A program made the position numbers and the translations under genes. A stretch of 64,000 nucleotides of DNA from an uncultured delta proteobacterium (lineage in GTDB: Bacteria > Desulfobacterota > BSN033 > UBA1163), in assembly GCA_963827685.1 (NCBI GenBank), contig CAWHBU010000001.1, positions 1 to 64,000 of the forward strand. Direction: 5' to 3'. Under the pieces are notes generated by a model that was not told the origin of the DNA, did no database searches, and was given only the letters and a program-made list of their open reading frames with translations. Below, piece after piece: positions 31,103 to 58,834 of this stretch. How positions within the stretch are numbered: the stretch's first letter is position 1; each line of letters starts with the position of its first letter.

Positions 31103-31457
31103 GGCTCGCCATAGAGAGTCTGCAGAGATTTCAGAGAGGACAAGGACCTGCTGACCAGCACTCAATATTTCAGTAAATGATAGAAGAATGGGTCAAAGAA
31201 AAAATGGGTGACTGCTGCGAAGCAGGAATTTATAAATTTATGGACATGTCTTTCATTACACTTTGCTTCTGGCGAGATTCCAGAATTAGGAGAGAATGGT
31301 TAAGTTGCATCTGAACCTACGTCCCGCAGATGTGATTGAAGATTACAGATCAAAAGCCTCAGAGGCATTGGTAAGCCGGTTGACTTCGTCATCGGTTACT
31401 TAATGGTTCGCGTTTGTAGTGGTAGGGCATAAGTTTTGAGGTTTATTTTCGAAAAAT

Positions 31458-32108
31458 CTACCCTGAAAGGTTCAATTCCAGAGTCTCAAGGTTTTTAGCG
31501 AGATCCAAATCAATTTTTAATATAACTTCCTTTAAGTGCCTTGAACATAAGGAAGACGAATAAGCTGCCAACTCTATATCAGCTTTTAAAAATTTTTTTC
31601 TAAACTCAGTATTAAAGAGGTCAAAGAACTCACCCAAACGCGTCAACTCCCATGGGTAGTGATAACGAAAATACTCTTTCCCTGAGCATAAGCGACAAAG
31701 ATAACGTCCAAGTATATGATGACCCCAGTATTCTGGATTTTGGATGGTATTAAATATTGACTCCTTCCTCTCTTTTGAAGCACGACACCCAAGTAAAAAT
31801 TTTGCTTTATCCGTGATATAAACTTGGGATTGGGTTGGACACAATTGCTTATTTATTTTGCACTTCCAAAGGTCTATTGGCAGCTCTACAAAGCCTTCAG
31901 GACAAATGACGATTTCACTATTTCCTTTTAAACCGGAGAGGTATTTTTTGCCTTCGGTTTCAAGAAATAAAACCAATTGCCCTCGGAGGTCTTTGATCGC
32001 TTCTTGGCGCAGAGAATATGGGGCGGATGTTCTTGGGACCGCTGGACATTTAGCAATCCATGACCGTTGATTCTGCGAAGCTACTTGAATTAGAAATTTT
32101 ACCTTCAT
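31458..32108 (-). CDS. Hypothetical protein with HicB-like N-terminus and Cys-rich C-terminus
   Basis: WIAKCPAVP...RQEAIKDL...LFLE resembles the HicB fold; AT-rich. Confidence 0.5.
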   Translation of the reverse strand: MKVKFLIQVASQNQRSWIAKCPAVPRTSAPYSLRQEAIKDLRGQLVLFLETEGKKYLSGLKGNSEIVICPEGFVELPIDLWKCKINKQLCPTQSQVYITDKAKFLLGCRASKERKESIFNTIQNPEYWGHHILGRYLCRLCSGKEYFRYHYPWELTRLGEFFDLFNTEFRKKFLKADIELAAYSSSLCSRHLKEVILKIDLDLAKNLETLELNLSG

Positions 32109-32249
32109 GTATCTGTGACTTGGAGTAAGCTTGAAATAATCCAATCCAGTTCTCTGTCGTCTATTATACAAAGAAGCGACAAGGTGTCGCAAATTTTCTA
32201 TCCGCGATGTTGGAAAATAGAGTGCTGGTTAAGGGGGAGAGAATAAAAA

Positions 32250-32276
32250 TGTCGCCATTTTACGTAGAAGGCGACA
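32250..32276. repeat. 27-bp palindromic site, copy 1
   Basis: TGTCGCCATTT TACGT AGAAGGCGACA. Confidence 0.85.
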
Positions 32277-32290
32277 GCGGTAAGAGGGGG

Positions 32291-32674
32291 TCACGGTGGG
32301 AAGAGACGATCAACCAGCGTCTGTGAGATCCGGTAAGGAGCAAGATCTGTCCGATGAAAAGTACCATTTTCAATAAACTCTCGACCGATGAGGTAGACCT
32401 CTGATTTGTCGAGTGACAATATGTTGTCATGGCCATCCAAACGAACTAAAGCAAGAACATGATACAGCCTATCTCTGGGTACTTGCCATTTTTTATCAGT
32501 TTTTCTGGTCGCCTTGACTTGGATTGCTTTGAGTGTAAAACCCCTCACGGCAATCAGGTCGTTCCCGGAGTCTTCCAGCGGTGGCGCGGCCTGCACACCA
32601 TACTGAAGAAGCCGTAGCTGGACGAGTAACTCTCCCGTCGTTCCTGTGATCAGATCTTCGGTAAGTGGATTCAT
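32291..32674 (-). CDS. Small PD-(D/E)xK-superfamily nuclease
   Basis: GE...GNDLIA...IQVKAT pattern. Confidence 0.7.
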   Translation of the reverse strand: MNPLTEDLITGTTGELLVQLRLLQYGVQAAPPLEDSGNDLIAVRGFTLKAIQVKATRKTDKKWQVPRDRLYHVLALVRLDGHDNILSLDKSEVYLIGREFIENGTFHRTDLAPYRISQTLVDRLFPP

Positions 32675-32760
32675 TATTCCGTCTCCATGGAGATGACTGC
32701 TAAATTGTCAACTGAGTACATACGCGCTAAAGCCCCCGGATTTTGCCGGCAGAAAGAACT

Positions 32761-32787
32761 TGTCGCCTTTTTACGCAGAAGGCGACA
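32761..32787. repeat. 27-bp palindromic site, copy 2
   Basis: TGTCGCCTTTT TACGC AGAAGGCGACA. Confidence 0.88.
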
Positions 32788-32837
32788 AATTGTGGACTTT
32801 CTAATAGTAGGGCTTTCATGACCAGCACTCCGTCTGG

Positions 32838-34409
32838 TCAATCCGATGGTTCTATGATTCCCTTGCCCATTGTCTTGTGCAGCAGAATGTCATCCATCGT
32901 AGTGATTACCCGCAGTATTTCGTTTGGTGAAACAAGCCCCGAGTAAACCAACCGGAACAGTGATGAGCGAAGATTGAGCACGATTCCGTTAGAGAACTTC
33001 GCTTTGACGCCGTACGCCTTTGGGTTCTCCAGCATTGGGCCGGAGGCCTTGGTGCGTTTGCCTTCTTCGGCCTCTTTTCCCGTGATCAGGGTAAGTTCAA
33101 GGCCGGCCTTGCCAGCGAGTTTGAAGAAAGCTTCTAGATCGAACTGTGCATAAATTCTGACCCGATCCATTACGACGTCGAGTACGAGGTCTTTCGGATA
33201 CCAGATGAGCGGTGAGCGGCTCACTCCATAAGTCATGTTGTGCACGACAAGATTAATTAGCGGAGCTTCTCTTTTAAGCGCTTCAATCTCTCTAAGCTCT
33301 TCAATCTCTCCTATCTGACATGTTAGCTCAGGATGCTTGAAATGAAACAAAATGTGATGGAGATTTCTAACATCTCCTAAATCAGCAATTCCTTTTTCTG
33401 AGAGGGCCACTAGGTAGAGACAACCGTCGACTTCCAGAATGCTTGTACCGCGCGCTTTCGCATCAGCCACGAGATCGGGCAGTAGTGGGAGATATAAAGC
33501 CATACCCGGGGGTTTTGCCCTGGTGAGCGCCTCCAAGAGTTCATCGTTTAGCGGAGCAATTTCGTCTCCATGGGCCTGCCGAATAGAAAGGAGTTCCTCT
33601 TTGATCGGCCGCGATTCAGGCTGTAAAATCGGTACCAACTGTTGGAACCTCTCTCGCTGGTGAATCATCCTTAACGCCTGTGTCCTTGCATCAGGTCCTA
33701 ATTTGACTTGGACTTCCTCCAGGTCCGCCTCTGACAAGGTCCCTCCGCGGGAATCGATAAAATCGTCCAGTATATCATTTATTCGGCCATGCTTAATCTC
33801 TTGGAAGCGTAAGTATATACCCTTCTCGTCCCAGCGAATTCTTATTATATCTCCAATCTGAACGATAGTGGTGAGGTCTGAAACTAGATTTATTTCTCTC
33901 TTTGCCCCTTGGTTGAGTTCGCGGGCTATTGACAACATTTTCATTAATTCGTCTGGATCGGGTTGTGGGGCATGACTCTGGATTGCAAGGTGGTTAGCTA
34001 TCCATGTTTCGGGTAGTAGAACCCAGAGCATTCCATCTATTAACCGTCTTAGGATGGTTTGGCGATTTTGGATTGCCTGAAGTTGAGTGCGAGTGTCTTG
34101 CTGTGCCGGGTTTCGATCGATGCGTAGGCGTTTAAGTTGTTCCGATACCTCTCGGCGTTTTTTCTCAAGGTCAATGAAAAGTATCCCAACCGCCCATTGA
34201 GTTTGGGCGAAGGCAGAGAAAAGGCCGTTTTGGAAGCATTCACGAGCATCGTCGTTTACCAGATCATCGCCTAACTTATATCCGGCCGCTTCGAGCGATC
34301 GGATCCCGCCGTCGAATGCAAATTCCAAGAACTTTTTGAGTTGAGGCTCGAATGGCTGTAAGAGGGGGTGCTCAATGACTGGTCTGGCTGGAAGTTTCTT
34401 TCCTTTCAT
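32838..34409 (-). CDS. Hypothetical 523-aa protein, possible degenerate PD-(D/E)xK core
   Basis: Long ORF; SDLTT...GDII...QEIKHG. Confidence 0.65.
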   Translation of the reverse strand: MKGKKLPARPVIEHPLLQPFEPQLKKFLEFAFDGGIRSLEAAGYKLGDDLVNDDARECFQNGLFSAFAQTQWAVGILFIDLEKKRREVSEQLKRLRIDRNPAQQDTRTQLQAIQNRQTILRRLIDGMLWVLLPETWIANHLAIQSHAPQPDPDELMKMLSIARELNQGAKREINLVSDLTTIVQIGDIIRIRWDEKGIYLRFQEIKHGRINDILDDFIDSRGGTLSEADLEEVQVKLGPDARTQALRMIHQRERFQQLVPILQPESRPIKEELLSIRQAHGDEIAPLNDELLEALTRAKPPGMALYLPLLPDLVADAKARGTSILEVDGCLYLVALSEKGIADLGDVRNLHHILFHFKHPELTCQIGEIEELREIEALKREAPLINLVVHNMTYGVSRSPLIWYPKDLVLDVVMDRVRIYAQFDLEAFFKLAGKAGLELTLITGKEAEEGKRTKASGPMLENPKAYGVKAKFSNGIVLNLRSSLFRLVYSGLVSPNEILRVITTMDDILLHKTMGKGIIEPSD

Positions 34410-34583
34410 TTCGTGGGCATTCCGATGGTTAAAACGGATAGATCAGGACCGCGACCAGGCTTAGCTGCAAATAGCTGATGGACTTCAACACATTGTTTCG
34501 GTCCAGGTTGAAATATAAACCATTCTAAAAAATAAAAAAAGCAATGGTTGCAAGGAAGAAAGTGGTAGCCTGTTAGGAGAAAA

Positions 34584-34610
34584 TGTCGCCTTTTTACACA
34601 AAAGACGACA
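34584..34610. repeat. 27-bp palindromic site, copy 3
   Basis: TGTCGCCTTTT TACAC AAAAGACGACA. Confidence 0.8.
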
Positions 34611-34728
34611 ACAAATCGGTCACAAAAATAACCTTTTATATACTCTTTCATTATTGAAACAGGTTCAGATAAGCCTCTTATGGATTACCATTTGAAGGTT
34701 ACACATTTTGGTGAAACCTGTCAACAAG

Positions 34729-34914
34729 GACTTCAGGAAGAAATTTTGTAAAAGGCGCGCGGGCAGATGCCAGCCATTAACCTCACCGGAGGCAGCAGAG
34801 AAATGCCTCGGTCACCACGAGATATTTAAGAGAGAAAAGAAATGAAGGTGGCCTGAACGATACTTAATCTGGCAAATCCCGTCGAACTAACTCCTGATTG
34901 ATAAATACTCCTAC
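34729..34914. repeat. Dispersed intergenic repeat, copy 1
   Basis: aggcgcgcgggcag...ctcaccggaggcagcagagaaatgcctcggtcacc...atttaagagag...tgaacgatacttaa...tcccgtcgaactaactcctgattga. Confidence 0.9.
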
Positions 34915-35154
34915 AAAGTGTGTAGATTAGCCGAGGCTCAGAGTTAAAGATTACCGATGAAAGGGAGCATAAAGGTGATGGTGAGCGGAACCGTTATTTG
35001 ATCGGATCCACTCACTGTTCTCTATAAGCGTCAGCTATGGATTGTGTTGTGATATTCGAGACGACTGGGGTATAATCACCCAACTGTTGCAGGCTAGATC
35101 AACATCAAGCCCTGTGCAAGCTGCTCACCAGATTGTAGTAAACAGGGGCAAACA

Positions 35155-36738
35155 ATGAAATCAGACACTGCTTTATCCGATGTCCAGTTGCAAAAATCTT
35201 ATGACCGCCGTGTCATTTCCTGGGCATGGTATGATTGGGCGAACCACGCCTACATCACCACTACCGCTTCAACCTTCTTTCCTCCTTATTTCATCGCCAT
35301 CGCTACCACATCTTTCATGACAATTGGCGCCTCCGTTAGTGACGAAGCGGCGAAAGCAGTCGCCAGAGATATTGCTTCCAACGTATTTGCCCTGATGATA
35401 TCATTCGCCTTGTTGGTGTCAGCAGTTCTCGCACCGATTGTGGGCGCATACGCCGATATCACCGGGATGCGCAAGCGCCTGTTGATCATTACAACCATTG
35501 CGGCAAGCCTGGTCTCCTCGCTGATGTTCATCCTGGTGACCGGCATGTGGCAGTTGGCATTAGTCCTGTATTTCGTATCCCAGGTCGGCATGAACATTAC
35601 TCTGGGCTTTTCCAGTAGTCTGCTGCCACATGTAGCGTCCCAGAAAGATATGAACCGAGTTTCCAGCCTGGGCTATGCCATGGGCTATGTGGGCGGCGGA
35701 CTGCTGCTCGCCCTGAACACTGTCCTCTACCTGTTTTCGGACAAAATAGGCATCGACAGCACTCTGGCGGTGCGCATCGCTTTTCTCTCCGTAGGGGTAT
35801 GGTGGATCGTCTTCACAATTCCGCTTATCCTCAATGTCAACGAGCCACCCGCCACGCCGCTGGCGCACGGAAGCCGGGGCAGTGGCATCCTCGATTCGCT
35901 CACCCGGCTTACCAATACTGTGCGGGATGCGGCCCGCTACCGTGAAATGTTCAAGATGCTCATCGCTTTCTGGTTTTACATGGAAGGCATCGGAGCAATC
36001 ATCCTCCTGGCAACATCATATGGCGCGGCGTTGGGGCTGAATACGGCCGTGCTGATCAGCACGTTGCTGATGACACAGTTTGTGGCTTTTCCCTATGCGC
36101 TCATCTACGGTCGTATCCCCATCCCGAGCAACCGCTGGCGCAGCGTTTTTGTCTCCATGCTCATCTGGACCGCGGTCACCTTTCCACTGATGGGACTGTA
36201 CGCCAACCTGAACCGAGGGGTGAGTCTCTCTCTTACCTTCGGCATGATCCTGGGAGACCAGGTGCTTGGCGTGTTTTTCTCTTTGCTGTTGGGACGCCGC
36301 TTGTTTTCTGGTCTGGTGCAAAAGCTGGACACCAAACGAGCAGTCATCCTCGGTTTGGTCATTTACACCATCATCCCGGTCTGGGGCTTTCTCCTCAAGA
36401 GTCAGGCAGAGTTCTTCATGATCGGCTGGTTGGTGGGAACAGTGCAGGGGGGTACCCAAGCGCTCAGCCGATCGATTTACGCCTCGATGACCCCGCGGGC
36501 CAAATCGGGCGAGTTCTTTGGACTGTACGGCTTGAGCGAAAAATTTGCAGGAATCCTCGGTCCATTCCTTTATGGCATCGTCGGCACGCTGACCCACAAC
36601 CCGCGTGCCAGCATCCTCTCTATCTCCGTATTCTTCATCACCGGTATCTACATTCTGGTGCGGGTGAATGAAAAGAGAGGCGCTGAAATCGCCGCTGCCG
36701 AAGAAGCCCAGATTGAGGTTCTCAAGGCTGCGGACTGA
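35155..36738 (+). CDS. MFS transporter, UMF1/Atg22-like
   Basis: SWAWYDWANHAY, GGTQALSRS, GEFFGLY. Confidence 0.88.
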   Translation: MKSDTALSDVQLQKSYDRRVISWAWYDWANHAYITTTASTFFPPYFIAIATTSFMTIGASVSDEAAKAVARDIASNVFALMISFALLVSAVLAPIVGAYADITGMRKRLLIITTIAASLVSSLMFILVTGMWQLALVLYFVSQVGMNITLGFSSSLLPHVASQKDMNRVSSLGYAMGYVGGGLLLALNTVLYLFSDKIGIDSTLAVRIAFLSVGVWWIVFTIPLILNVNEPPATPLAHGSRGSGILDSLTRLTNTVRDAARYREMFKMLIAFWFYMEGIGAIILLATSYGAALGLNTAVLISTLLMTQFVAFPYALIYGRIPIPSNRWRSVFVSMLIWTAVTFPLMGLYANLNRGVSLSLTFGMILGDQVLGVFFSLLLGRRLFSGLVQKLDTKRAVILGLVIYTIIPVWGFLLKSQAEFFMIGWLVGTVQGGTQALSRSIYASMTPRAKSGEFFGLYGLSEKFAGILGPFLYGIVGTLTHNPRASILSISVFFITGIYILVRVNEKRGAEIAAAEEAQIEVLKAAD

Positions 36739-36843
36739 ATGAAAGGCTATGGCCTGTTGCTTGTAAATAGGTTCTCGGTTGGATTATAGAGGGAGCCAGA
36801 ATAGCCTAGGAATAGCCGGATATTGTAGGAGAAAATCCACATT

Positions 36844-37051
36844 TCACCTTTCACTCTTCACTTTAAGGGACTACTGAAAGATGAAGATTACAGGTTGCTA
36901 TATTGCATCGGCGGGAGAAATTAAAAAATCACGATTTCAGGAAGAAGCTTTGTAAAAGGCGCGCGGGCAGATAGCAGCCAAAAACCTCACCGGAGGCAGC
37001 AGAGAAATGCCTCGGTCACCACAAGACATTTAAGAGAGAAGAGAAATGAAG
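36844..37051. repeat. Dispersed intergenic repeat, copy 2
   Basis: Near-identical core to 34729-34850 plus a 5' segment shared with 51661-51758. Confidence 0.88.
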
Positions 37052-37191
37052 CCTCTGACGTCAGATTTGATTTTTAACTATAGAAAATTGTGGATCTTGA
37101 AACCCATCGTAAGCTTACACAACGGTTTTTTTATGCCAGATAGAGCTGCTCCTTTTTCCACGAGTGCAGGTCTGAATTCAAGTGAGAGTTG

Positions 37192-38067
37192 TCATTTAAC
37201 CCGCCTTTTAAAGAGCCTTCGGAACAGCTTGGGTAAAAACCAGATGCCTGGGATGATCAGGACCAACCAAGGGACGACCGCTACGATGAAGGTAAGGACC
37301 GCTGCGATGCTGTTTGCGAATACATGTCCCATTCCATGCCAGGTGGATATAATCGGTGCCAAGGCCCCCGTCTCCGCAATGGACGGCTTCGGTCGGAAAT
37401 CAATGGCCACAGCAACTTTCTCCGTCTCATTGGCAAGTGCTTTCCGACTTGCTACCAGGCTATCCAACTCTGATTGTGCTTTGGACAATTCCCGCTCAAC
37501 CTCTACCACATCTTTCAAACTGCCTGTGCGGGTGGTCAATATCGTACGCAGCCGATTCCGCAATTCAGTGAGATTTTTGATCTTGGCTTCGACATCGATA
37601 ACCGTGCTGGTCTTATCTTCGCTTTCCGTGTTTTGGGTTACAACATTACCCACTTTGTTAATATGTTCCAGAAGGGGTTTTAGATGCTGGGGAAGAACCC
37701 GCAAAACGAGATTGCCGGAGGGCGGTGAGTATGGAGTCTTTTTATTTATGGTGGATTCCAAAATATCGCAATGGATGCTCCGGCAGAACTCATTCACCGA
37801 TTCCCATGCCTTTTCCAAATCAGACTCTGAAGTCTCCACAACAAAATGATGCCTCATGGCGATATAGCGTTTGGATTCGACATCAGGATCATTCTTGAAT
37901 TTTTCTTTATCCTGTCTAACTCTTTCTTCATATTGTCTAACTTTGGCCAGATTAGGAACCGCAGCAGATTTGAGGTATCTTGAAGCTTGCTGATATTCCT
38001 CTGCTTTGCCGCAACCACCCATCAGCAATAGACCGATCATGCCAAGTAATATGAGTCTTCTAATCAT
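37192..38067 (-). CDS. DUF4349-type lipoprotein
   Basis: MGGC lipobox; SEDKT...IDVEAKIKNL...VERELSK; C-terminal TM. Confidence 0.8.
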   Translation of the reverse strand: MIRRLILLGMIGLLLMGGCGKAEEYQQASRYLKSAAVPNLAKVRQYEERVRQDKEKFKNDPDVESKRYIAMRHHFVVETSESDLEKAWESVNEFCRSIHCDILESTINKKTPYSPPSGNLVLRVLPQHLKPLLEHINKVGNVVTQNTESEDKTSTVIDVEAKIKNLTELRNRLRTILTTRTGSLKDVVEVERELSKAQSELDSLVASRKALANETEKVAVAIDFRPKPSIAETGALAPIISTWHGMGHVFANSIAAVLTFIVAVVPWLVLIIPGIWFLPKLFRRLFKRRVK

Positions 38068-38140
38068 AGAACCATTCTCCCTTTTATAGATATTTCTTAG
38101 GGGCCCCCTTTTACTGATACAAACCTATTCATTAATTCTA

Positions 38141-38188
38141 CCCCCCCACCCTCCCCTCCCCCTCAAGGGGGGAGGGTTAGGGAGGGGG
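38141..38188. repeat. REP-like C-run/G-run hairpin
   Basis: C-run arm ending cccctcaagggggg followed by agggttagggaggggg. Confidence 0.7.
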
Positions 38189-38239
38189 TAAGAGTCTTGG
38201 AAGCTATTCTATACTTTCTTATCTCATTTGACAACTCAG

Positions 38240-39052
38240 TTATCCCTTGAAGTCCTTTGGGATCGGAGCAAATTCCAAATCATCAGGCCAGAATCTGTTT
38301 TTCGGACCGCATGAGATGATTCCTTTCCGGCAAAGCTCTGATCGCCACTCGTATTTTAGAACGATTTTTTCCGCGATGGTATGCTCAGGATCAAATTGGA
38401 CCATGGTGACAGGAGAGTAGGTTGTTTCTCCAAAGCCGGTGCCAGGCTGCTCGCTCTCTTTCAGTATATTTTTGCCGGCGGCACGACTCTCACTTGACGC
38501 TGAAGGTGCCCCTGCCGCAGGCGCTTCCTTCTTTCGAAATGACATATCGAAGTATGGGGCGATTTCGGCTATCTTTTCTTTATAGACAGCAAGCGCGATG
38601 GTCCCCAAGGCCGAAGCATCGGCAAATACTTTTTCGGCATAGGAATCGAACTGCTCGGTAAAATAGAACCTGTTGGTCCTGTCCATGCCTGTTCGCCAGC
38701 CTTCAAAGGTATTGGTATCATAAGGCCCGATGATATACATCCTTTCATTCCTGAGGAGATCTGATTTTTTGCCGTCAATGATATTTCTTCCATCCACTGC
38801 GATGACGACGCCAATACGCCTGTCCGATTTATTTGTAACCTGAATAGAGTATCTCTGTCCCTTGACTGCTTCCATATAGTAATACTCCCCTTCCTGATGG
38901 CCACGCAGAAAGGTTTTGTATTTCGGAAACACCCCCCCCTTATCCGAGACAATCCGCACATCGACAACATCGGTCTTCCCAAAATGCGCACATCCCAGTG
39001 TCGGAGTGACCAAACTGATAAACAATACCGCAATGAAAGCAATTCGTCTCAT
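38240..39052 (-). CDS. Conserved-looking secreted hypothetical protein
   Basis: Signal peptide; VVIAVDGRNIIDG, FEGWR, GTGFGE motifs; AGGAGG RBS. Confidence 0.75.
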   Translation of the reverse strand: MRRIAFIAVLFISLVTPTLGCAHFGKTDVVDVRIVSDKGGVFPKYKTFLRGHQEGEYYYMEAVKGQRYSIQVTNKSDRRIGVVIAVDGRNIIDGKKSDLLRNERMYIIGPYDTNTFEGWRTGMDRTNRFYFTEQFDSYAEKVFADASALGTIALAVYKEKIAEIAPYFDMSFRKKEAPAAGAPSASSESRAAGKNILKESEQPGTGFGETTYSPVTMVQFDPEHTIAEKIVLKYEWRSELCRKGIISCGPKNRFWPDDLEFAPIPKDFKG

Positions 39053-39086
39053 AACGTTACCTCCTTTTTGAGTGTCTTTTGATTTA

Positions 39087-39114
39087 ATAGACAACCGGAA
39101 CAGAAAAAAGTTCC
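39087..39114 (-). promoter_or_regulatory. Putative ECF (sigmaE/AlgU-type) promoter
   Basis: Minus strand GGAACTT-N16-TCTAT upstream of the 39052 start. Confidence 0.45.
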
Positions 39115-39150
39115 CTGTTTAGGAAAAGTTTTTCAGTTAGATGGGGGAAT

Positions 39151-39262
39151 TGATACGTTCGACAGCGCCAAACCCGAATTCTTGAATAGGGCTTAAAAGC
39201 GCGGCTAAGTATCAACCCTGAGCATACCCCGGGTTTCAGACCGGGGAGTCGAATGGGTTGAT
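39151..39262. repeat. Degenerate TTCGAC...CCCTGAGC...GTCGAA REP-like element with nested hairpins
   Basis: ttcgacag...atcaaccctgagcata[ccccgggtttcagaccgggg]agtcgaatgggttgat. Confidence 0.55.
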
Positions 39263-39393
39263 TTCAGTGGCAAGAAGATTGATGAGTGAAGAAAAAACAG
39301 AAAGGCAGGTTCTTTAAGCTCCTGGGGACTTGATCATTGACTGCAGAAAATCCTGGACCCTGATTCAAATGCAACTTAGGCATACCTCCTCAT

Positions 39394-39531
39394 GAACCTC
39401 ACTGGAGGCAGCAGAGAAATGCCTCGGTCACCACGAGACATTTAAGAGAGAAGGAGAAACGAATGCGCCTTGAACGATACTTAATCTTACAAATCCCGTC
39501 GAACTAACTCCTGATTGACAAGTATACCTAC
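39394..39531. repeat. Dispersed intergenic repeat, copy 3
   Basis: gaacctcactggaggcagcagagaaatgcctcggtcacc...cccgtcgaactaactcctgattgac. Confidence 0.9.
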
Positions 39532-39679
39532 GACTGTCCACTCCGAGCTAACCTTCAAGGTTAGCGATTACGATTAGAAAGCAAGCATAAGTAAGGCTTT
39601 AAAAAAAGGTAGGGCCTTATCCGACAATGCCTTTGCTCCTTTGTCCCCAATCAAGCTGTTGCGAAACCCCAATTTCAGT

Positions 39680-40717
39680 TTAGAACTTGTAGAGGATCGT
39701 TAACCAACTATTTATCCCCTGAGGCCTATTTCTCGCTTCAATTTCGTAATCAACGCGGGCTTCCGCGATCCAATGTTTGTAAGTCCACCACACACCAGGA
39801 CCAACGGCAAAGACCTCACCCAAATTGTTCTTTACCCTTCCTGCAGTCGTCTCATCGTCTGTGGTTTGTTTATAAAAATATCCAGTGGCTCCAGCCCTAA
39901 ATTGATGTGCAGCACCGGTCTTGCTGAGGGCATACGCAATGGCGTAATCAAAGTGAAAATCTTGTCCGGGCGTAAGGTTAGTTCGTACACCAACTAAATT
40001 CTTATTTCCTATTTTTGCAGCCGTGGGAGCATTAATAATGTAATTGTCGTTTCTCGAGTTGAAACTATAATCCATTTTTATATCCAATTCGAGATCTGGG
40101 TGCCACGGTAAAAAAAGTGTGGCTGCAATAACAGGCGACACGGACCAAACATTATTCCCAATATTGACTAAACGCTTTGGACCCCATTGACCGGTTGGAG
40201 AAGTTATATCCACGGCAGTAATAAAATGAAATAAACCACTTTTGGTGTGCCATCCTATGCCAGGACCAAGGGTAATATCACCTACTCCAGTGTGGTGGTC
40301 AGACTGGTCTGTGGGTAGGTCCAGTTTGATACGAGAACTTACCACGGGGATAATTGCGTGTCCTATCAGATATCCATCTAATCCCGCAACAGAAAGCTTT
40401 AGTGGGGAGATATAAATGAATCGTGTGGAGGAGACTACGACTTGGAGTTTATCTAATGCATACCCCTCGGTCTTAAGGCTTACAGTATGATTGAGTCCGT
40501 AACCGTGATTAGTCTCTAGCTTTTTGGCAGTATAATAGTCAATGTACTCCTTAATAACAAAAGCTTCGCCCGGAGGGGTGACCCCCGACAAGAAGGATTC
40601 AGCCCCCAGGGGCTCAGGAGTCAGTCCTCCAGCAAAAGCAAGAAGAGGAGAAAATAAAGTGACTGGAATAACCAATGTAGCCATAAACCATGGCATTAAT
40701 CTCCCCTTACGTTCCAT
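39680..40717 (-). CDS. SphA/phenol meta-pathway family outer-membrane transporter
   Basis: GVGDI, PTG...NIGNN, GYFYKQTTDD, FAVGPG, terminal Phe. Confidence 0.75.
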   Translation of the reverse strand: MERKGRLMPWFMATLVIPVTLFSPLLAFAGGLTPEPLGAESFLSGVTPPGEAFVIKEYIDYYTAKKLETNHGYGLNHTVSLKTEGYALDKLQVVVSSTRFIYISPLKLSVAGLDGYLIGHAIIPVVSSRIKLDLPTDQSDHHTGVGDITLGPGIGWHTKSGLFHFITAVDITSPTGQWGPKRLVNIGNNVWSVSPVIAATLFLPWHPDLELDIKMDYSFNSRNDNYIINAPTAAKIGNKNLVGVRTNLTPGQDFHFDYAIAYALSKTGAAHQFRAGATGYFYKQTTDDETTAGRVKNNLGEVFAVGPGVWWTYKHWIAEARVDYEIEARNRPQGINSWLTILYKF

Positions 40718-40739
40718 AATCGTCCCTCCTTCTTCAAAT

Positions 40740-41635
40740 TTAATCACTGTGGTCATTCGTCATGGAACTCCGGTAGATAGCATTGGATTGGTGGATAGCA
40801 CTGGATTGAAAGGTAAAGTACAACTCAGCCTTAACCCCACCTTTCATAGGGGAAATGCCAAAACCGTATGTTTTATCTTTAGGGAGGTTTAAGAACGAAT
40901 CATGGACAGTTGCACTGAGGAAATTCCCTAGGGCAGCACCGGCCAGAACGTCCGATGGGTAATGCGCTTGAGCTTCCACTCGCCCCCAGGCAACAGTCGA
41001 ACCAAGTAGAATGTTTACGACTTTCAGTGGGATTCTTACCTCCTGAGGTAATTCAATAGAATCGAGATTTCGATTACTGAGGGCCACTGATGAGAAGGCA
41101 GCGAGGCTTCTCCGGAAGGAAAACTTTTATTGCTACTCCCGTTTGGTCGAGTACGACCAGTGGTATCCTTTAACAAGCTTGTCGCTCCAGCCGTCAACAG
41201 CTCAGCAGCTCCCTCCACTGCAATACCCTTCAGCTTCGAATATACCCAGTCCTTGGAATCACCACCACTCGGAGTAGCAAGCGCAGTGATAAACACCTCT
41301 GTATACAGAGGAATCTCCAAGTACAAGTTGTAATTTGCCGCATTTTGGGTAGATCCGAAAATGGGTGTATGTCCAGTAGCCCAATGCGAAACTTTCTTGT
41401 CCCATTTACTCAACCCGAAGACGAGCGCTCCTGCCACAGGGATGAAAGTCTGTGGATCTACCAGAGCATTAAATGCAGCACGAGGGATCTTCTTAAGCTC
41501 TACCGGGTAGATCGCGTCCTGGCCCCAACCCCGGCCATTATTTAACGTCCCGCACCCTGTCATGGCAAAAATGATGAATGCCACTGCTAACAGAACCATC
41601 AGATTGGAACGTTTCAGGCCATAGTAAATCGGCAT
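40740..41635 (-). pseudogene. PAP2-family lipoprotein split by a frameshift near 41103
   Basis: K...R.RP...SFPSG in one frame; RVEAQAHYPSDV in the next. Confidence 0.75.
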
Positions 41636-41852
41636 GCCCACCACCTCCTTTTTCCCCAATACGATGAACTCCCGAAGCTAAGGGGAATTAACCGTACGAT
41701 GTCCCATCGGAAACAACGACGGTTTCCAGCGTTTTCTCACCCTGTTAGAATAATTATTTTGGGGGACTATGCCCTAAGGGGCATCTGCCTTTTCAGCAAT
41801 GAGGGTTTAAAAAATGGAAAAAGAATTAACGAGGAATACCAACCCAGGTTTC

Positions 41853-42188
41853 TTAACAACGGAGGACGAGGCTTTTTTGATCGAGGGAAGAAGATTGGGA
41901 AGAGAAGACAGAAAGCTGCTCGAAAACACTGGTTTCAGGAAAGAACACGTGGAACAAAGCATTTGATCCGATTGATCCGAGGAGGTTCAAGTGGTTCTGA
42001 CAATCGGGTAACAGGTACTCGTCATCTAGATCCGGATTCTCAAACTTTGGCTCAGGAGAAACAGGAGAAAAGAGATCATCGTCTGCTAAACCGCAGTAAA
42101 GGAGGTAACCCGAAAGGACAGGAACGGAAAGAGACATTATTAAAGCGAAAAGAATCCGAAATTTTTTCAATCCACTAAGCATATCCAC
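41853..42188 (-). CDS. Small membrane-anchored hypothetical protein
   Basis: N-terminal hydrophobic helix, acidic tail ending VLRC. Confidence 0.55.
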   Translation of the reverse strand: MDMLSGLKKFRILFALIMSLSVPVLSGYLLYCGLADDDLFSPVSPEPKFENPDLDDEYLLPDCQNHLNLLGSIGSNALFHVFFPETSVFEQLSVFSSQSSSLDQKSLVLRC

Positions 42189-42290
42189 CTTCTGGGTTGA
42201 AGATTGTAAGAATAATACTTGCTTACGGCGTTATATTACGAATTTCTTATGATAAAGTTAAGAAAAAGACGTCGGTTCTTCAGTAAAAAA

Positions 42291-42971
42291 TTAGCCCCGA
42301 TCTTCCATGACATAACCCACCCCTTTCACGGTGTGGAGAAGTTTGGGTTCGAATTCCTTATCGATCTTATTCCGTAAATGAAAAACATGGACATCCACCA
42401 CATTGGTAGAGGGGTCAAAGTGGCAATCAAAGATCTTCTCAGAAATCATGGTTCGAGTAATGATCTCGCCAGGGTGTCTCATGAAGAACTCAAGGAGAGC
42501 ATATTCCTTCGGGGTGAGCTCGATCTTGACTTTTTCCCGAAAAACCCGATGCCCATCGGATTCTAAAATGAGGTTAGCCACTTGCAATCTTGAAGTGGAG
42601 ATATTTGTCTTGCCTCTTCTCAGGATAGCCCGAATCCTGGCAAGCAATTCATTAAAAGAGAAAGGTTTGGTTAGGTAATCATCCGCTCCTAAATTTAACC
42701 CTCTAACAATATCACTGTCCGAATCCTTTGCCGTTAAGAGGATCACAGCGGTTTGAATATCCATGGATCGGATCTTTTTCAGAACCTCCCTCCCATCCAT
42801 TTTCGGAAGCATGATGTCAAGGACGATCAGATCGTCGTATTTCATATGAGACGCAAGCTGCAACCCCTCTTCTCCATTCGAAGCCACATCCACAGAAAAG
42901 GCTTTTTCTACCAGTCCTTTCTTAACGAATTGGACAATGCCTTTGTCGTCTTCGACCAATAAAATTCTCAT
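42291..42971 (-). CDS. OmpR-family response regulator (CusR/CzcR-like), no adjacent kinase
   Basis: MRILLVEDD, LDIMLP, GADDYLTKPF, LHTVKGVGY. Confidence 0.92.
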   Translation of the reverse strand: MRILLVEDDKGIVQFVKKGLVEKAFSVDVASNGEEGLQLASHMKYDDLIVLDIMLPKMDGREVLKKIRSMDIQTAVILLTAKDSDSDIVRGLNLGADDYLTKPFSFNELLARIRAILRRGKTNISTSRLQVANLILESDGHRVFREKVKIELTPKEYALLEFFMRHPGEIITRTMISEKIFDCHFDPSTNVVDVHVFHLRNKIDKEFEPKLLHTVKGVGYVMEDRG

Positions 42972-43313
42972 CGGTTTTTATTCTAACAACTCCTTTTTTT
43001 ATGCCACTCTGTTGCACCTGTGTATTGTGAAATTCCAAAAAGCCATTGCCACAGCGACGGGCACTTGGCGGTCATATTCGAAAGGGATGGCAGGAACAAA
43101 CCTAGCCCCACGCGGATATGTCACTGAGTCGTCGTTAAGGATTCCTTTGACCTCCTTTCCCGTCCTCCCTCTTCTTCCAAATCTTAAACAAACTAAGATT
43201 AAAGAAAGGTTAGAATAAGGTTAAGATTTGTTAATTTTATGGAGTAAGGGCGCTCAAGTTCACTGGGTCTTATCCCTGATCAGGGCAAATCAATTTTTTA
43301 TTAATCAGAGAAA

Positions 43314-43339
43314 TGTCGCCTTTTATGCGAAAGGCGACA
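43314..43339. repeat. Palindromic site, copy 4 (26 bp)
   Basis: TGTCGCCTTTT ATGC GAAAGGCGACA. Confidence 0.8.
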
Positions 43340-43463
43340 CGCAGACCGTGCTCGCAACTCTAAGACCTCTCTCTTCAGGCCTCCCACTTTCCTAAATGAG
43401 ATTGTAAAAATTATCTTTTTAAAGATTTGCACTTGACCTTCCCCTGAAAAAGTGGACACATGA

Positions 43464-44321
43464 TTAAGTTTCATTAAGGAGCTTTTCATACTGCTCTGGG
43501 CTCCTGTACCCTAATGCCGAATGACTCCTCTGACGATTATAAAACACTTCCACGTACTCAAAAATACTAAGCCTCGCCTCCAGCCTTGAACGGTACCGCT
43601 CACCATGGACCAACTCCGTCTTGAGCGTGCCAAAGAAAGACTCCACATAGGCATTATCATAACAATTGCCACTTCTGCTCATACTAGGAGTCATGCCGTA
43701 TTCTCTTAAAAGCTCCTGATAGGCATAGCTTGCATACTGCCTGCCTCGATCAGAATGGTGGATCAACCCTTCAGAGGGGCTTTGCCTGCCCACCGCGTCC
43801 CTGAGCGCAGCAGAAGCTAGCTCCTGAGAGAGCTTATCGCTCATGGACAGCCCAATGATCTTTCTGCTTTTCACATTCATCACTGCTGCCACATAGAGCC
43901 ATCCCTCAGAAGTGGGCACAAACGTAATATCAGATGCCCATACCCCCTCTGTCTGCCTCTGGTCAATCAGTAAGTTTGCAGCCAAGGCATAATGATGCCG
44001 TGAATCGGTAGTCCGCCTGAATCTCTTTTTCTTCACTTCTGCCCATATGGAGTGCTCTTTCATGATCCTGGCTACCCGGTTCTTCCCACATCTAAGACCC
44101 TGCTTATTGAGCTCCGCTGCGATCCGCGGACTCCCATAGAGCCTTCTGCTTTGAGTGTGGATCTCCCGTATGTGCCCCAGCAACTCCTCATCGTCTTTCT
44201 GACGTGTGCTCGGTTGACGCGTCTTCCACGCATAATAACCACTTCTGGATACCTTCAACACTTCACTCATACTCCTTATCTTGTAGGTCTCTCTGTGCTC
44301 TTCTATCAACCGATACTTCAT
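43464..44321 (-). CDS. IS3 transposase OrfB
   Basis: WASDITF, HHSDRGRQY, DNAYVESFFGTLK. Confidence 0.95.
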   Translation of the reverse strand: MKYRLIEEHRETYKIRSMSEVLKVSRSGYYAWKTRQPSTRQKDDEELLGHIREIHTQSRRLYGSPRIAAELNKQGLRCGKNRVARIMKEHSIWAEVKKKRFRRTTDSRHHYALAANLLIDQRQTEGVWASDITFVPTSEGWLYVAAVMNVKSRKIIGLSMSDKLSQELASAALRDAVGRQSPSEGLIHHSDRGRQYASYAYQELLREYGMTPSMSRSGNCYDNAYVESFFGTLKTELVHGERYRSRLEARLSIFEYVEVFYNRQRSHSALGYRSPEQYEKLLNET

Positions 44322-44620
44322 CTGTTTCGTTTGGAGAATACGGCCAAGGCTTTTTTTAAAATGTCCCTCTCTTCCTTCACCTTTTCTAATTCCTTCCGGA
44401 GCCCCTTTATTTCCGCTTCCTCTGGCGTTACACGGCCCTTCCCTACGAAGGCTTTATCCCCTTTAGCTAAGAACCTCCTCCTCCATAGATGAAGAAGATT
44501 GGGATGGATATCAAGCTCTCGGGCCACCTTGCCTACCGGCATCCCTTTCTCTGTGACCAACTGCACTGCATCTCGTTTGAACTCACGGCTGAAATGACGA
44601 TTCTTTTCCCCCATACGCAC
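44318..44620 (-). CDS. IS3 transposase OrfA
   Basis: HTH FSREFKRDAV...ERDILKKA; A7G slippery site at 44350-44357 with open -1 frame into OrfB. Confidence 0.93.
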   Translation of the reverse strand: MRMGEKNRHFSREFKRDAVQLVTEKGMPVGKVARELDIHPNLLHLWRRRFLAKGDKAFVGKGRVTPEEAEIKGLRKELEKVKEERDILKKALAVFSKRNR

Positions 44621-44714
44621 CTCCTGTCCAATGATACAAATTCTCAGGTGTGTCCATCAACTCGGGGGAAGGTCACTTGAAATCTTGAGTGCTTAGATGG
44701 TTTGTTAGAATGAA

Positions 44715-44781
44715 GACTTCAGGAAGAAACTTTGTAAGAGGCGCGCGGGCAGACGCCAGCCAAGAACCTCACCGGAGGCAG
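44715..44781. repeat. Dispersed intergenic repeat, copy 4 (partial)
   Basis: gacttcaggaagaaactttgtaagaggcgcgcgggcag...aacctcaccggaggcag. Confidence 0.85.
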
Positions 44782-44955
44782 GATAAGAAGGTCGAGGAAG
44801 ATGGATGGGCAACAACCACTTTTTCCTGTTGATTGACAGGTTTGGCCCCTTTTGTTATAGCAGGTCTATTGCTGTGATAGTTGCTGCCAAAGTTACGTTT
44901 TCCTCCACGGCCAACGTCGTGATCCCCTGCGTAGGCGGATGAAAGGAGAAAAAAG

Positions 44956-55824: not shown

Positions 55825-56718
55825 TCAAGGATTATTTGGGTTGCCAGCCGTTCGTTGCATGATCACCTCCATGGCTTTGTAGTAATCTCTCTGTACTTTG
55901 AGGTTTGATACCCGGCAGTAGCGTTGGGTCGTCCTGATAGAGTTATGCCCCAAAAGATCCTGGATGGTAGAGAGGTCCGCATCCGCATTCAACATCTGCG
56001 TTGCCATCGTATGGCGAAGATGGTGGCAGGAGATTCTCAAGTTTGTTTTGCGGGCATAATATTCCATCCGTTTCTGGATGCCGCGAATGGATAAAGGTTG
56101 CCCGCTGAGAGGCCCTTTCTCTACAAGAAAAACCTTTCTTACTTTATTTGCGGGTCGCACCCTTAGATATTCCAGGAGAGCATGAAGGGCATCGTTGCTG
56201 AGATAGACAATCCGATCCTTCGCACCCTTGCCATCCTGGATGAGCAGCATTCTGCGTTTCAGATCAATATTGCTGAGGGAAAGGTGAGCCACTTCTTCTA
56301 CCCGTAATCCGCATCGGAGCATGAGCGTGAAGATGGCCTGATCCCTTCGCCCTTTCAGATGCTTGAAGAGGATCTCTATGTGCTCGTCTCTCAGATGTTT
56401 GGGAAGCCCCCTGGGAAGCTTCATGATATTTGGCTTCTTCACAGGGTTGACGATCCGGAGTCCCTCTTCTTCGCAGAGGTAGTGGTAAAACTGACAGATG
56501 CTGTTGAGATAACAGTTGACGGTCTTAGGTTTTAGCCGTTTTCCAAGCAGGTCATCCATATACTCGTCAACCTTTCTGTAGGTGACCTTTTCGATCGGCT
56601 CATCCAGCCAGAGAACAAAGTGCTTCAGACTGTTTAAATAGTGCTTAACGGTATTCGGTGAGACGTTCCTTCTCTTCAAGAAACGCCTGTACCTGATGAT
56701 CGAGTCGGTAAGATCCAT
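55825..56718 (-). CDS. Tyrosine recombinase (XerC/D-like)
   Basis: GLRVEE, GKGAKDR, HHLRHTMAT, LLGH, TQRY. Confidence 0.95.
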   Translation of the reverse strand: MDLTDSIIRYRRFLKRRNVSPNTVKHYLNSLKHFVLWLDEPIEKVTYRKVDEYMDDLLGKRLKPKTVNCYLNSICQFYHYLCEEEGLRIVNPVKKPNIMKLPRGLPKHLRDEHIEILFKHLKGRRDQAIFTLMLRCGLRVEEVAHLSLSNIDLKRRMLLIQDGKGAKDRIVYLSNDALHALLEYLRVRPANKVRKVFLVEKGPLSGQPLSIRGIQKRMEYYARKTNLRISCHHLRHTMATQMLNADADLSTIQDLLGHNSIRTTQRYCRVSNLKVQRDYYKAMEVIMQRTAGNPNNP

Positions 56719-57808
56719 TCAGCTCCCCCCTTTCTATAATCGTCATGGCTCTGAAGTACTCTTGCTCTCTGGTCTTATCCGTGAGCCGCGCATAGCGCCG
56801 CGTCACATCCACAGAGGTATGCCCCATCAGCGGTTGGAGGCATTCGAGGCGCATACCGGCATTTAAAAGCTCACTGGCAAACGTATGTCGTAGGGCATGG
56901 AGGCAATACCCCTTATGGGCAAGACCGGCTTTCGTCAGGTAGCCTTTGAACATGAGGTGTGCGGTCGTATAGGACATGGCGTTCTTGCCCGTCGCATAAA
57001 AGAGATATACTTTATGAGAATCCTTCACCTTGATCCAGGCTTTCAAAGCCTGCATGGCATCTTCACTGAGGTAAACCACTCTTCCGATGCGGTTCTTTTC
57101 CCCCTCGTAGATATCCACTCTTCGATCCTTGAGGTGAAGATCCTGCATCCTGGTACTCAGCAATTCACCGATTCTCATCCCCGTCCGTAAAAGCACCATC
57201 ACCATGGCCCGGTCTCTGGGATTGTTGATAACAGAAAGTAATGCTTTCACATCGTCCGGATCTATGGCCCTCGGTAAGGTCTCGGGCTTCCTCAGACGAA
57301 TCCTTCTTGCCAGAACATTACTACGAATCGCACCTGCTTCAATCAGATAGCCTAAAAAAGCATTGACACAGTGAAGCCTTGTTCGCACCGTCGATATCAT
57401 TAACCCCCGATCCTGCTCATGTTCAATAAAAACCTCCAGATCATCCTTGGTGATCTCCTCCAAACGGGTCTTTCCGGAACCTCTAATAAGAGTGAGAAAA
57501 ATATAGATTGCGGTCAGGTTACTGAAGTACGTTTTTGGCCTGAGACCCCGCCTACACATGTCCCGCAAATAGCCCTCAACGTGCTCTTTTCCCGGCAAGC
57601 CCCAGCCTGCAACCCGATTCAGTGCCCATTGAAACGCTCTTGCCTTCGCCTCGAGCTCAGGACAACACGGCCTCTCTGATTTTCCTCTATGGGCCTTGGA
57701 TAAAAAAATGGATGGGTGAATCCCCTCCCGTCGATCAATACTTCTAAATTCCGTCAGGGATTCATTCGTTGGAATGACGCTGCAATATTCTATAGCCCTC
57801 TGGTCCAT
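56645..57808 (-). CDS. Tyrosine recombinase (XerC/D-like)
   Basis: TGMRIGE, HALRHTFAS, LMGH, TRRY. Confidence 0.95.
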   Translation of the reverse strand: MDQRAIEYCSVIPTNESLTEFRSIDRREGIHPSIFLSKAHRGKSERPCCPELEAKARAFQWALNRVAGWGLPGKEHVEGYLRDMCRRGLRPKTYFSNLTAIYIFLTLIRGSGKTRLEEITKDDLEVFIEHEQDRGLMISTVRTRLHCVNAFLGYLIEAGAIRSNVLARRIRLRKPETLPRAIDPDDVKALLSVINNPRDRAMVMVLLRTGMRIGELLSTRMQDLHLKDRRVDIYEGEKNRIGRVVYLSEDAMQALKAWIKVKDSHKVYLFYATGKNAMSYTTAHLMFKGYLTKAGLAHKGYCLHALRHTFASELLNAGMRLECLQPLMGHTSVDVTRRYARLTDKTREQEYFRAMTIIERGELNGSYRLDHQVQAFLEEKERLTEYR

Positions 57809-57976
57809 CTCTATCTCCTTTCCTTTGAATCAATAGGAAATACAGATAGATGATGAACCTGATAAGCTTAACTTTCAATCACCTTTTTGTTACGTATAGC
57901 ACTACTCTTCACCTTTGATAGGAGCGAGGGACTAACGATTATGGATTGACCTTCCCCTGAAAAAGTGGACACATGA

Positions 57977-58834
57977 TTAAGTTTCATTAAGGAGCTTTTC
58001 ATACTGCTCTGGGCTCCTGTACCCTAATGCCGAATGACTCCTCTGACGATTATAAAACACTTCCACGTACTCAAAAATACTAAGCCTCGCCTCCAGCCTT
58101 GAACGGTACCGCTCACCATGGACCAACTCCGTCTTGAGCGTGCCAAAGAAAGACTCCACATAGGCATTATCATAACAATTGCCACTTCTGCTCATACTAG
58201 GAGTCATGCCGTATTCTCTTAAAAGCTCCTGATAGGCATAGCTTGCATACTGCCTGCCTCGATCAGAATGGTGGATCAACCCTTCAGAGGGGCTTTGCCT
58301 GCCCACCGCGTCCCTGAGCGCAGCAGAAGCTAGCTCCTGAGAGAGCTTATCGCTCATGGACAGCCCAATGATCTTTCTGCTTTTCACATTCATCACTGCT
58401 GCCACATAGAGCCATCCCTCAGAAGTGGGCACAAACGTAATATCAGATGCCCATACCCCCTCTGTCTGCCTCTGGTCAATCAGTAAGTTTGCAGCCAAGG
58501 CATAATGATGCCGTGAATCGGTAGTCCGCCTGAATCTCTTTTTCTTCACTTCTGCCCATATGGAGTGCTCTTTCATGATCCTGGCTACCCGGTTCTTCCC
58601 ACATCTAAGACCCTGCTTATTGAGCTCCGCTGCGATCCGCGGACTCCCATAGAGCCTTCTGCTTTGAGTGTGGATCTCCCGTATGTGCCCCAGCAACTCC
58701 TCATCGTCTTTCTGACGTGTGCTCGGTTGACGCGTCTTCCACGCATAATAACCACTTCTGGATACCTTCAACACTTCACTCATACTCCTTATCTTGTAGG
58801 TCTCTCTGTGCTCTTCTATCAACCGATACTTCAT
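57977..58834 (-). CDS. IS3 transposase OrfB
   Basis: Protein identical to 43464-44321. Confidence 0.95.
   Translation of the reverse strand: MKYRLIEEHRETYKIRSMSEVLKVSRSGYYAWKTRQPSTRQKDDEELLGHIREIHTQSRRLYGSPRIAAELNKQGLRCGKNRVARIMKEHSIWAEVKKKRFRRTTDSRHHYALAANLLIDQRQTEGVWASDITFVPTSEGWLYVAAVMNVKSRKIIGLSMSDKLSQELASAALRDAVGRQSPSEGLIHHSDRGRQYASYAYQELLREYGMTPSMSRSGNCYDNAYVESFFGTLKTELVHGERYRSRLEARLSIFEYVEVFYNRQRSHSALGYRSPEQYEKLLNET

Follow-up and report, generated by a model that had tools for sequence, protein, structure and literature searches.

The window analysed here spans the opening 64 kb of contig 1 in the assembly of an uncultured delta proteobacterium (5.2 Mb in 14 contigs; genome G000 below). 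It contains an array of orphan genes separated by co-oriented copies of a near-perfect 27-bp palindrome. The explanation that we place first, and hold tentatively, is that this palindrome is the boundary element of cassette-like accessory-gene arrays in one family of Thermodesulfobacteriota, and that the units of these arrays are exchanged by recombination there. Copies of the palindrome recur in related genomes and in metagenomes beside very diverse genes, homology between loci often ends at them, and a gene for a small Xer-like tyrosine recombinase, or a remnant of it, lies downstream of the arrays. The array in the window is best read as a frozen one, probably left without a working recombinase.

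The four copies in the window are located at 32250–32276 (TGTCGCCATTTTACGTAGAAGGCGACA), 32761–32787 (TGTCGCCTTTTTACGCAGAAGGCGACA), 34584–34610 (TGTCGCCTTTTTACACAAAAGACGACA), and, as a 26-bp variant, 43314–43339 (TGTCGCCTTTTATGCGAAAGGCGACA). An earlier note, made from the letters of the window alone, had reported these four sites, the spacings of 511 and 1823 bp among the first three, and their TAC(G/A)(C/T) centre, all correctly. Shuffling the sequence 100 times with its dinucleotides preserved gave on average 0 matches. The arms of the site (TGTCGCCTT and AAGGCGACA) are complementary to each other, and enclose a centre of 5 nt (7 nt with arms counted as 10 bp). The sites all face one way, as the note had also seen. 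On the minus strand they read TGTCGCCTTCT-N5-AAAAGGCGACA and are followed by a T-rich run; the copy at 34584–34610 is TGTCGTCTTTTGTGTAAAAAGGCGACA on this strand and is followed by TTTTCT, and the next bases after the copy at 32250–32276 are TTTTTATTCTCTCC. Each site either lies 15–50 bp past a stop codon or closes a conserved non-coding unit. Two features had been missed, namely the reading of the site as a hairpin plus a T-run, and a fifth, degenerate palindrome at 32155–32181. The latter overlaps the promoter-like sequence TTGCGA-N18-TATAAT upstream of the gene g244. The other copies in G000 are all on contig 2 (C2:487296, around C2:488631, and two decayed copies of the class A module described below, at C2:486283-486405 and C2:12145-12271). 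No relevant match at E ≤ 1 was found in Rfam for 31–45 kb of the window. A small open reading frame (ORF) inside the palindrome, with an ATG and a Shine-Dalgarno-like run, was considered and rejected. Such frames have 4–59 codons, diverge past the palindrome and sometimes lack a start codon, which argues that the site is non-coding.

The site is present in 11 of the 15 genomes of the genus when up to three mismatches are allowed, with 1–5 copies in each, and a reversed control pattern has 0 matches in the same 15 genomes. BLAST searches with the site and its flanks found it in 20 of the 41 sampled genomes of the family, representing 14 of 21 genera, and a second query found it in 20 of 55 family genomes and 13 of 21 genera. 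Exact pattern scans matched at least 124 contig stretches from JGI metagenomes, and no site was found by such a scan of a viral contig collection. Across genomes and metagenomes the 27-mer is almost invariant. Its variation is concentrated at positions 6–7 of the 5′ arm and at the first three bases of the loop, which are nearly always R-Y-R. At stem position 10, a C-A mismatch is conserved in 26 of 34 distinct copies. In a full-text literature search on half-site strings, none of the papers listed was relevant; no other search aimed at earlier descriptions was made, and hence the site is not claimed to be unpublished.

The metagenome array set comprises 79 loci with 128 sites. Intervals between good sites (n = 24) are 279–1913 bp long and never of mixed orientation. 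The longest ORF is on the strand of the T-run in 22 of them, and usually fills most of the interval. Judged by the T-run, the loop and the asymmetry at position 10, the sites are direct repeats in every array. They are located 10–143 bp downstream of ORF ends, and some of the next ORFs begin just 22–30 nt past the site. The same layout, with one site per 3′ end and all sites co-oriented, is seen in the three units of the window. The earlier suggestion that the sites bracket single-gene units is supported, and most of the intervals hold one ORF each.

The cargo is diverse. The 264 ORFs around sites, which also include flanking housekeeping genes, fall into 231 clusters. More than half of the cluster representatives examined (79/150) have no Pfam match at 1e-4. 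The matched cargo includes several PIN domains as well as AbiTii, AbiEi, SocA, MqsA, HNH, GIY-YIG, DNA methylase, NYN, caspase-like and kinase domains. Gene content between sites varies between genomes, a point that the note had proposed to test. The neighbouring genes are hypervariable, and the sites are not confined to fixed promoter-proximal positions at conserved genes.

Homology between loci was compared at the interior ends of matches of at least 250 bp and at least 85% identity (n = 182). Of these ends, 23 are within 5 bp of an edge or the centre of a palindrome, against 1.2% of positions. This is about ten times the frequency that position alone would predict; counted as distinct places, the figure is 17 of 130. 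In one case, L122:1043-2390 corresponds to L171:1453-95 with 91% identity from palindrome to palindrome, and the DNA outside is unrelated. This common unit is 1.35 kb long and contains three ORFs, and a third contig has the same upstream boundary. The genomes G009 and G010 share a 597-bp block with 97.5% identity, which runs from a class B module through a site and a 75-aa ORF into the following site, of which it includes the left half. In G010 the block stops after the left arm and four loop bases, where a truncated archease-like sequence, upstream of RtcB, is joined to it. A class A module of G049 starts with the right arm only, directly past the stop codon of a 118-aa gene. The third half-site, in contig L132, consists of the loop and the right arm. 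All three half-sites are broken at the junction between arm and centre. The note had suggested a check for breakpoints in the spacer, and homology between loci does end at the sites. The 1.6 kb shared by G009 (genus g1) and G019 (genus g6) with 99.8% identity demonstrates recent transfer between genera. Adjacent sites never share the same 5-nt centre (0 of 32 pairs), whereas a shared centre is seen in 17% of pairs drawn at random from different loci; the chance can be estimated as 0.83^32, or about 0.003.

G010 also contains a second, diverged archease-RtcB region (L030:8584-10386), where the archease is cut at the half-palindrome junction; L078 of G011 can be compared. In most genomes of the genus, RtcB has a conserved element of ~135 bp upstream of it.

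The recombinase gene linked to the arrays encodes an Xer-like tyrosine recombinase of 178 aa with the catalytic domain only, called mini-Xer here. At 13 of 13 distinct loci found by tblastn, the gene or its 5′ part (at least 60% identity) is on the same strand as the last site and 0.2–1.4 kb downstream of it (G043:C24, L106, L157, L104, G011:C165 with the same sequence in L102, G024:C17, L172, L116, L162, G042:C5, G015:C7, G008:C63 and G043:C33). A short piece is also seen at G042:C10. The window is the 14th locus, where the minus strand from 31435 to ~31352 aligns with the first ~85 nt of the gene. This stub has a 4-nt insertion, starts 23 bp past the stop codon of g244, and adjoins position 31332, where homology with the genomes of the genus resumes.

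Mini-Xer keeps the catalytic residues (R...HxxR...H...Y), with RVSEL, HVLRH, LLGH and EIY aligned to residues 103–267 of the XerC-like chain 4a8e, and the L106 copy matches Pfam Phage_integrase with E = 2e-31. The N-terminal core-binding (SAM-like) domain is absent; the protein begins at position 95 of 263 of the XerA model and at residue 103 of 4a8e. Its score is 69 bits on the integron-integrase model TIGR02249 (cut-off 265), and 136 bits, in the C-terminal part only, on the XerA model (cut-off 220). Conservation of the gene starts ~5 nt ahead of the ATG, and many copies are cut after ~130 nt. Uninterrupted copies are those of G043:C24 (178 aa) and the metagenome contig L106 (175 aa), while the copy of L104 runs off the contig end. 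As for the proposed involvement of a tyrosine recombinase, the physical linkage of the arrays to an Xer-like gene or its remnants, one of them in the window, is supported, and this genome has no intact copy of that gene. G000 encodes three unrelated small recombinases elsewhere, and no Phage_integrase gene is located within 10 kb of the sites of the window.

The recombinases at 55.8–57.8 kb, which had been named as possible partners, can be rejected in this role. These two tyrosine recombinase genes, of 297 and 387 aa, overlap each other and have IS3 elements on their flanks here, and the identical pairs at C2:701.6-702.9 kb and C4:735.4-736.8 kb make three in the genome. They never accompany the sites elsewhere. 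These identical copies show the pair to be a separate, multi-copy mobile element.

Alignments of the flanks reveal three recurring non-coding contexts of the site, which are class A, class B and a module of ~270 bp around the copy at 43314; many copies belong to one of the first two. The earlier impression that the DNA around the sites is unrelated is accurate among the copies of the window, but not in comparison with other genomes, where the flanks 32155–32276 and 34584–34743 are conserved modules. In many pairs, class A homology with other genomes begins at base 0 (±3) of the palindrome and extends from the first base of the perfect palindrome to the last base of the degenerate one. Class A carries the promoter consensus TTGCG(A/T)CA-N3-TGTCGC-TTTTTTG-TATAAT. 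The -10 box is within the degenerate palindrome, and the -35 box is overlapped by a further GCGACA half-site (TGTCGC/GCGACA half-sites). The distance between the palindromes is 94–96 bp from centre to centre in every copy examined. The next ORF varies by locus. An invertible promoter was also considered for class A; all copies checked are directed toward the downstream ORF wherever one is callable. In G042, a relative of the Y1 transposase interrupts a class A module (L096:6509-7006).

Class B contains a promoter-like site, TTGACA (34724–34719)-N17-TAACCT (34701–34696), which is TTGACA-N17-TA(A/G)(A/C)CT across copies. The unit of ~165 bp recurs in unrelated contexts of other genomes. Its RNA folds better than shuffled sequence (z = -3.94), with clear conservation in the terminal hairpin only and weak covariation outside it. 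The order class B, site, cargo, site, class A is shared by the window, G010 and G009, and similar pairs are seen in G043, G063 and G015. The motif TTTCTTCCTGAAGT is found at 34730, 36934 and 44716 (minus strand) of the window, at L091:12227 and at L157:460. Class B starts, and the 190-bp repeats described below end, at this motif, which in two loci also follows the stop codon of mini-Xer. It is possibly a second junction or an att-like motif.

In the cassette explanation, the observed arrays are understood as follows. A cargo unit is usually one gene, often an orphan, toxin-antitoxin or defence-type gene, and closes with the palindrome. An array typically starts with class B, and its end is formed by class A, a small gene or a few of them, and mini-Xer. 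Units might be gained, lost and swapped through recombination at the palindromes. Arms of 10–11 bp around a 5–7-bp RYRTA centre have a geometry that suits a tyrosine recombinase; the candidate enzyme is mini-Xer, or a host Xer where mini-Xer has decayed. The hairpin of 9–11 bp and the T-run on the cargo strand most likely also end or attenuate transcription. Because the roles in DNA exchange and in RNA termination are compatible, a dual-function inter-cassette site is favoured. The anatomy and distribution of the arrays, their cargo diversity, the homology ends at the sites and the link to the recombinase gene are observed here, whereas the site-specific nature of the exchange, the enzyme behind it and termination at the hairpin are inferred. 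A more ambitious version, which we regard as doubtful, is that the arrays are an undescribed gene-capture platform, integron-like but independently evolved. In this version, the 27-bp hairpin would be both recombination site and terminator, the RYRTA centre would be the pairing address, the mini-Xer at the tail would insert and excise the cassettes, and portable promoter modules with this site at their boundaries, one with an attI-like degenerate copy over its -10 box, would express them.

Several points weigh against recombination at the palindromes by such an enzyme. At least five of the next eight nucleotides are T at 88 of the 128 sites, and stem changes leading to G-U outnumber those leading to A-C by 27 to 13 on the cargo strand; both point to a role in RNA or termination. 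Intact mini-Xer is found in 1 of 55 family genomes (E ≤ 1e-22), the match in G011 being a broken stub. G000 has no intact copy, its best relative being 32% identical. That the palindrome is nearly invariant while intact mini-Xer is rare suggests either a function independent of the enzyme or recent transfer. The absence of shared centres in adjacent sites is confounded, since the centre type follows the module class and common descent explains a part of it. Since the palindromes are alike, matches run to their outer edge wherever the crossover occurred, and RecA-type exchange on short identity fits equally. Most loci are from metagenome assemblies, in which joins at repeats may be wrong; G000 and G010 are near-complete with long contigs. 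Finally, the excision or empty-site junctions that the note had proposed to look for were not demonstrated: contigs of four DNA runs on 30800–35300 gave no excised circle, empty site or polymorphic junction. They contain joints between 32276 or 32787 and 34580, but the sides of these joints are only 20–31 nt, which is the palindrome itself, so that the mapping is ambiguous and they are not taken as empty sites.

A purely transcriptional explanation comes second to the cassette system, and is possible, though we doubt it. The palindrome would be a plain intrinsic terminator or 3′-end hairpin in portable modules, genes would be reshuffled by homologous recombination on linkers of 27–165 bp, and the recombinase would be an island integrase. 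The site does have the features of an intrinsic terminator, a G+C-rich stem-loop of 9–11 pairs with a direct T-run downstream of a gene, and the copy at 34584 was flagged as terminator-like. Besides the T-runs and the G-U bias already mentioned, the short distances to the ORF ends, the conservation of the site in genomes without mini-Xer, and the position of the mini-Xer stub at the junction of island and core, as with island integrases, all fit this explanation. Class A would then be a compact conserved promoter module; 52 of 60 matches to its promoter pattern have the upstream arm. However, the ordinary terminators of unrelated genes share no near-invariant 27-mer, loop included, over 13–14 genera, and the conserved C-A mismatch at position 10 also speaks against a plain terminator. 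ORFs that start 22–30 nt past a site leave no space for a promoter of their own. The three half-sites cut between arm and centre, and the lack of shared centres in adjacent sites, also argue against this explanation.

It is unlikely that the palindrome is the operator of a dimeric regulator, possibly of the recombinase as an autorepressor, with perfect and degenerate copies 95 bp apart forming a loop that silences the cargo. The conserved promoter TTGCG(A/T)CA-N3-TGTCGC-N7-TATAAT, with the degenerate copy over its -10 box and the GCGACA half-site over its -35 box, would suit such a regulator, as would the constant spacing in class A and the conservation of sequence beyond pairing alone. Yet most copies are solo at 3′ ends of genes with no overlapping promoter, no regulator gene is conserved next to the sites, and the constant spacing may merely reflect common descent of the module. 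The repressor operator offered as the alternative in the earlier note thus has some merit for the promoter-overlapping palindrome at 32155–32181, but not for the solo sites or the perfect copies, which are not over promoters. Least probable of all, and very unlikely in our judgement, is that the modules are small non-autonomous mobile elements, such as miniature inverted-repeat transposable elements (MITEs), Correia elements or repetitive extragenic palindromes (REPs), which insert themselves downstream of genes that are only bystanders. In favour of this, the ends of class A are inverted (TGTCGCC... ...GCGACA) and its boundaries are sharp, G000 has 25 matches to Y1 transposases, and IS3 copies are 82–190 bp from five sites. 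Against this, there are just 1–6 copies per genome, no target-site duplication is visible at the ends of class A, no orthologous gene pair with and without the module was found, and the sites are confined to hypervariable cargo instead of being spread over core intergenic regions. The Y1 transposases are not adjacent to the sites either, so that neither the REP/RAYT nor the MITE pattern is seen.

Under the cassette explanation, the array of the window can be read on the minus strand as class B, site, g523, site, g127, site, class A, g244 and the mini-Xer stub (Table 1). It forms a strain-specific island, with a Sir2 gene on one side and a 190-bp repeat on the other.

Table 1. Positions of the array features and of neighbouring repeats and mobile elements in the window
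Feature	Position	Strand	Description
Class B module	34584..34743	-	Promoter-like site, leader or small RNA of ~110 nt, palindrome, T-run
Palindrome 1	34584..34610	-	3′ end of class B; flagged terminator-like, 11 pairs, loop of 5
Cargo gene g523	32838..34409	-	523 aa; orphan family, no Pfam domain
Palindrome 2	32761..32787	-	Solo copy; 50 bp past g523 stop, 87 bp ahead of g127 start
Cargo gene g127	32291..32674	-	127 aa; orphan
Palindrome 3	32250..32276	-	15 bp past g127 stop; opens class A module
Class A module	32155..32276	-	~122 bp; palindrome, T-run, ~60 bp, promoter 32192-32163, degenerate palindrome
Cargo gene g244	31458..32108	-	Orphan, downstream of class A promoter; ORF 31458-32192, likely start Met29 at 32108
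Mini-Xer 5′ stub	31352..31435	-	Decayed; downstream end of array, by island/core junction ~31333-31349
Variant palindrome	43314..43339	-	26 bp; within third conserved module, ~270 bp (43165-43436)
190-bp repeat, full	34731..34916		
190-bp repeat, partial	36926..37051		
190-bp repeat, partial	39391..39531		
190-bp repeat, partial	44717..44781		
ATG22-like MFS gene	34947..36849		
~115-bp repeat	39150..39264		
IS3-family element	43433..44686		
IS3-family element	57946..59198		
Tyrosine recombinase gene pair	55825..57808		Overlapping genes, 297 and 387 aa

The products of g523, g127 and g244 have no match in Pfam, NCBIfam or PADLOC. At the DNA level, a single stretch of 48 nt is all that these genes match in the other 54 genomes of the family. 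The orphan family of g523 has a length of ~490 aa and ~50 relatives in metagenomes. A two-gene system of g523 and g127 was considered and dropped, because the sole genome locus retrieved for g523 (Binataceae) has no neighbouring relative of g127. The PD-(D/E)xK assignment given to the 127-aa protein in the note is only a lead, which comes from a match to PDDEXK_5 at rank 28 (score 0.92) in the protein atlas; an AlphaFold model from the single sequence was unusable (mean pLDDT 36.8). No tRNA that could be an integration target is found in the window or at eight related loci. The variant palindrome at 43314 is 94 bp from an IS3 copy and inside an insertion (39145–44939), which is missing between g284 and YkuD in G010, G009, G012, G004 and G005.

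Other repeats and mobile elements are found near the array. The ~190-bp repeats, also present in G010, G003 and G008, have no match in Rfam and bracket the MFS gene, the pair of DUF4349 and g284, and the insertion at 39.1–44.9 kb. The partial copies around variable blocks look like traces of repeated integration at one target. The MFS gene is 95–98% identical to copies of G011, G004 and G010 in other contexts, while its neighbours are 76–87% identical, which suggests recent transfer of that gene block. Many genomes of the genus contain the ~115-bp repeat more than once, G011 for example having five copies, with 86–90% identity. The IS3-family element has at least 14 copies in the genome with 98–100% identity; the five cases near palindromes noted above are in G000 and G010, and include class B modules. 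The Y1 transposase matches of G000 belong to IS200/IS605 and are on contigs C1–C9; 18 of them have the same score and the same ORF length.

Integrons and the dif modules of Acinetobacter are the main known systems in which single genes are filed behind short recombination sites. The attC site of integrons is an imperfect palindrome of 57–141 bp with R″/L″...L′/R′ boxes and a GTTRRRY core. If the arrays are a third, independent system, cassette-style gene capture would have evolved more than once, in this case among uncultured Thermodesulfobacteriota of sediments, and with a minimal recombinase and a site of half the length of the smallest attC. The 27-bp site and the 178-aa enzyme would be a very small toolkit for DNA rearrangement, and the site would be a simple tag by which orphan, toxin-antitoxin and defence-type genes could be harvested from metagenomes by the hundred. 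Should the site be only a terminator, the portable modules would still clearly exemplify the movement of regulatory DNA between unrelated genes.

The arrays resemble integrons and CALINs (attC clusters without an integrase) in many respects. In both, co-oriented cassettes with mostly one gene each close in a hairpin-forming site, the diverse cargo is rich in orphans and toxin-antitoxin genes, there is a platform promoter, and the linked tyrosine recombinase is often decayed or missing. On the other hand, the site here is a conserved, near-perfect palindrome of 27 bp with a T-run and has no GTTRRRY in or beside it, so that the statement of the earlier note that it is not attC can be kept. IntI is absent, and the catalytic-domain-only mini-Xer closes the array downstream, on the strand of the sites, instead of being divergent at its head. 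In addition, promoter modules recur within the arrays. The general features of integrons are those given in the portions consulted of PMC8618304 and PMC11641012.

The plasmid dif (pdif) sites of Acinetobacter, according to the portion consulted of PMC13141974, have distinct XerC and XerD arms and a 6-bp spacer, alternate in orientation to form C and D modules on Rep_3 plasmids, and recombine only when the spacers are identical or nearly identical. Here as there, arms of ~11 bp around a short centre bracket modules of accessory genes which shuffle between replicons, and the rule of spacer identity corresponds to the absence of adjacent identical centres in our arrays. Insertion sequences beside sites are also common to both (PMC10132070, in part). 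The differences are the symmetric arms, the 5-nt centre, the exclusive use of direct repeats, the chromosomal location and the dedicated mini-recombinase gene of the arrays described here. Their site sequence has no likeness to dif. A scan of G000 with the pdif arms of PMC13141974 gave no outstanding candidate for a canonical dif of the host that could serve as comparison.

Rho-independent terminators share with the site a G+C-rich stem and a T-run directly past ORFs. Correia-type elements and the so-called mobile promoters are portable repeats that carry promoters or terminators. Class A is comparable to them as a compact terminator-plus-promoter unit upstream of unrelated genes. Unlike such portable repeats, however, the palindrome described here has a very low copy number, is found in cassette arrays only, is conserved in sequence across genera, and is linked to a recombinase gene.

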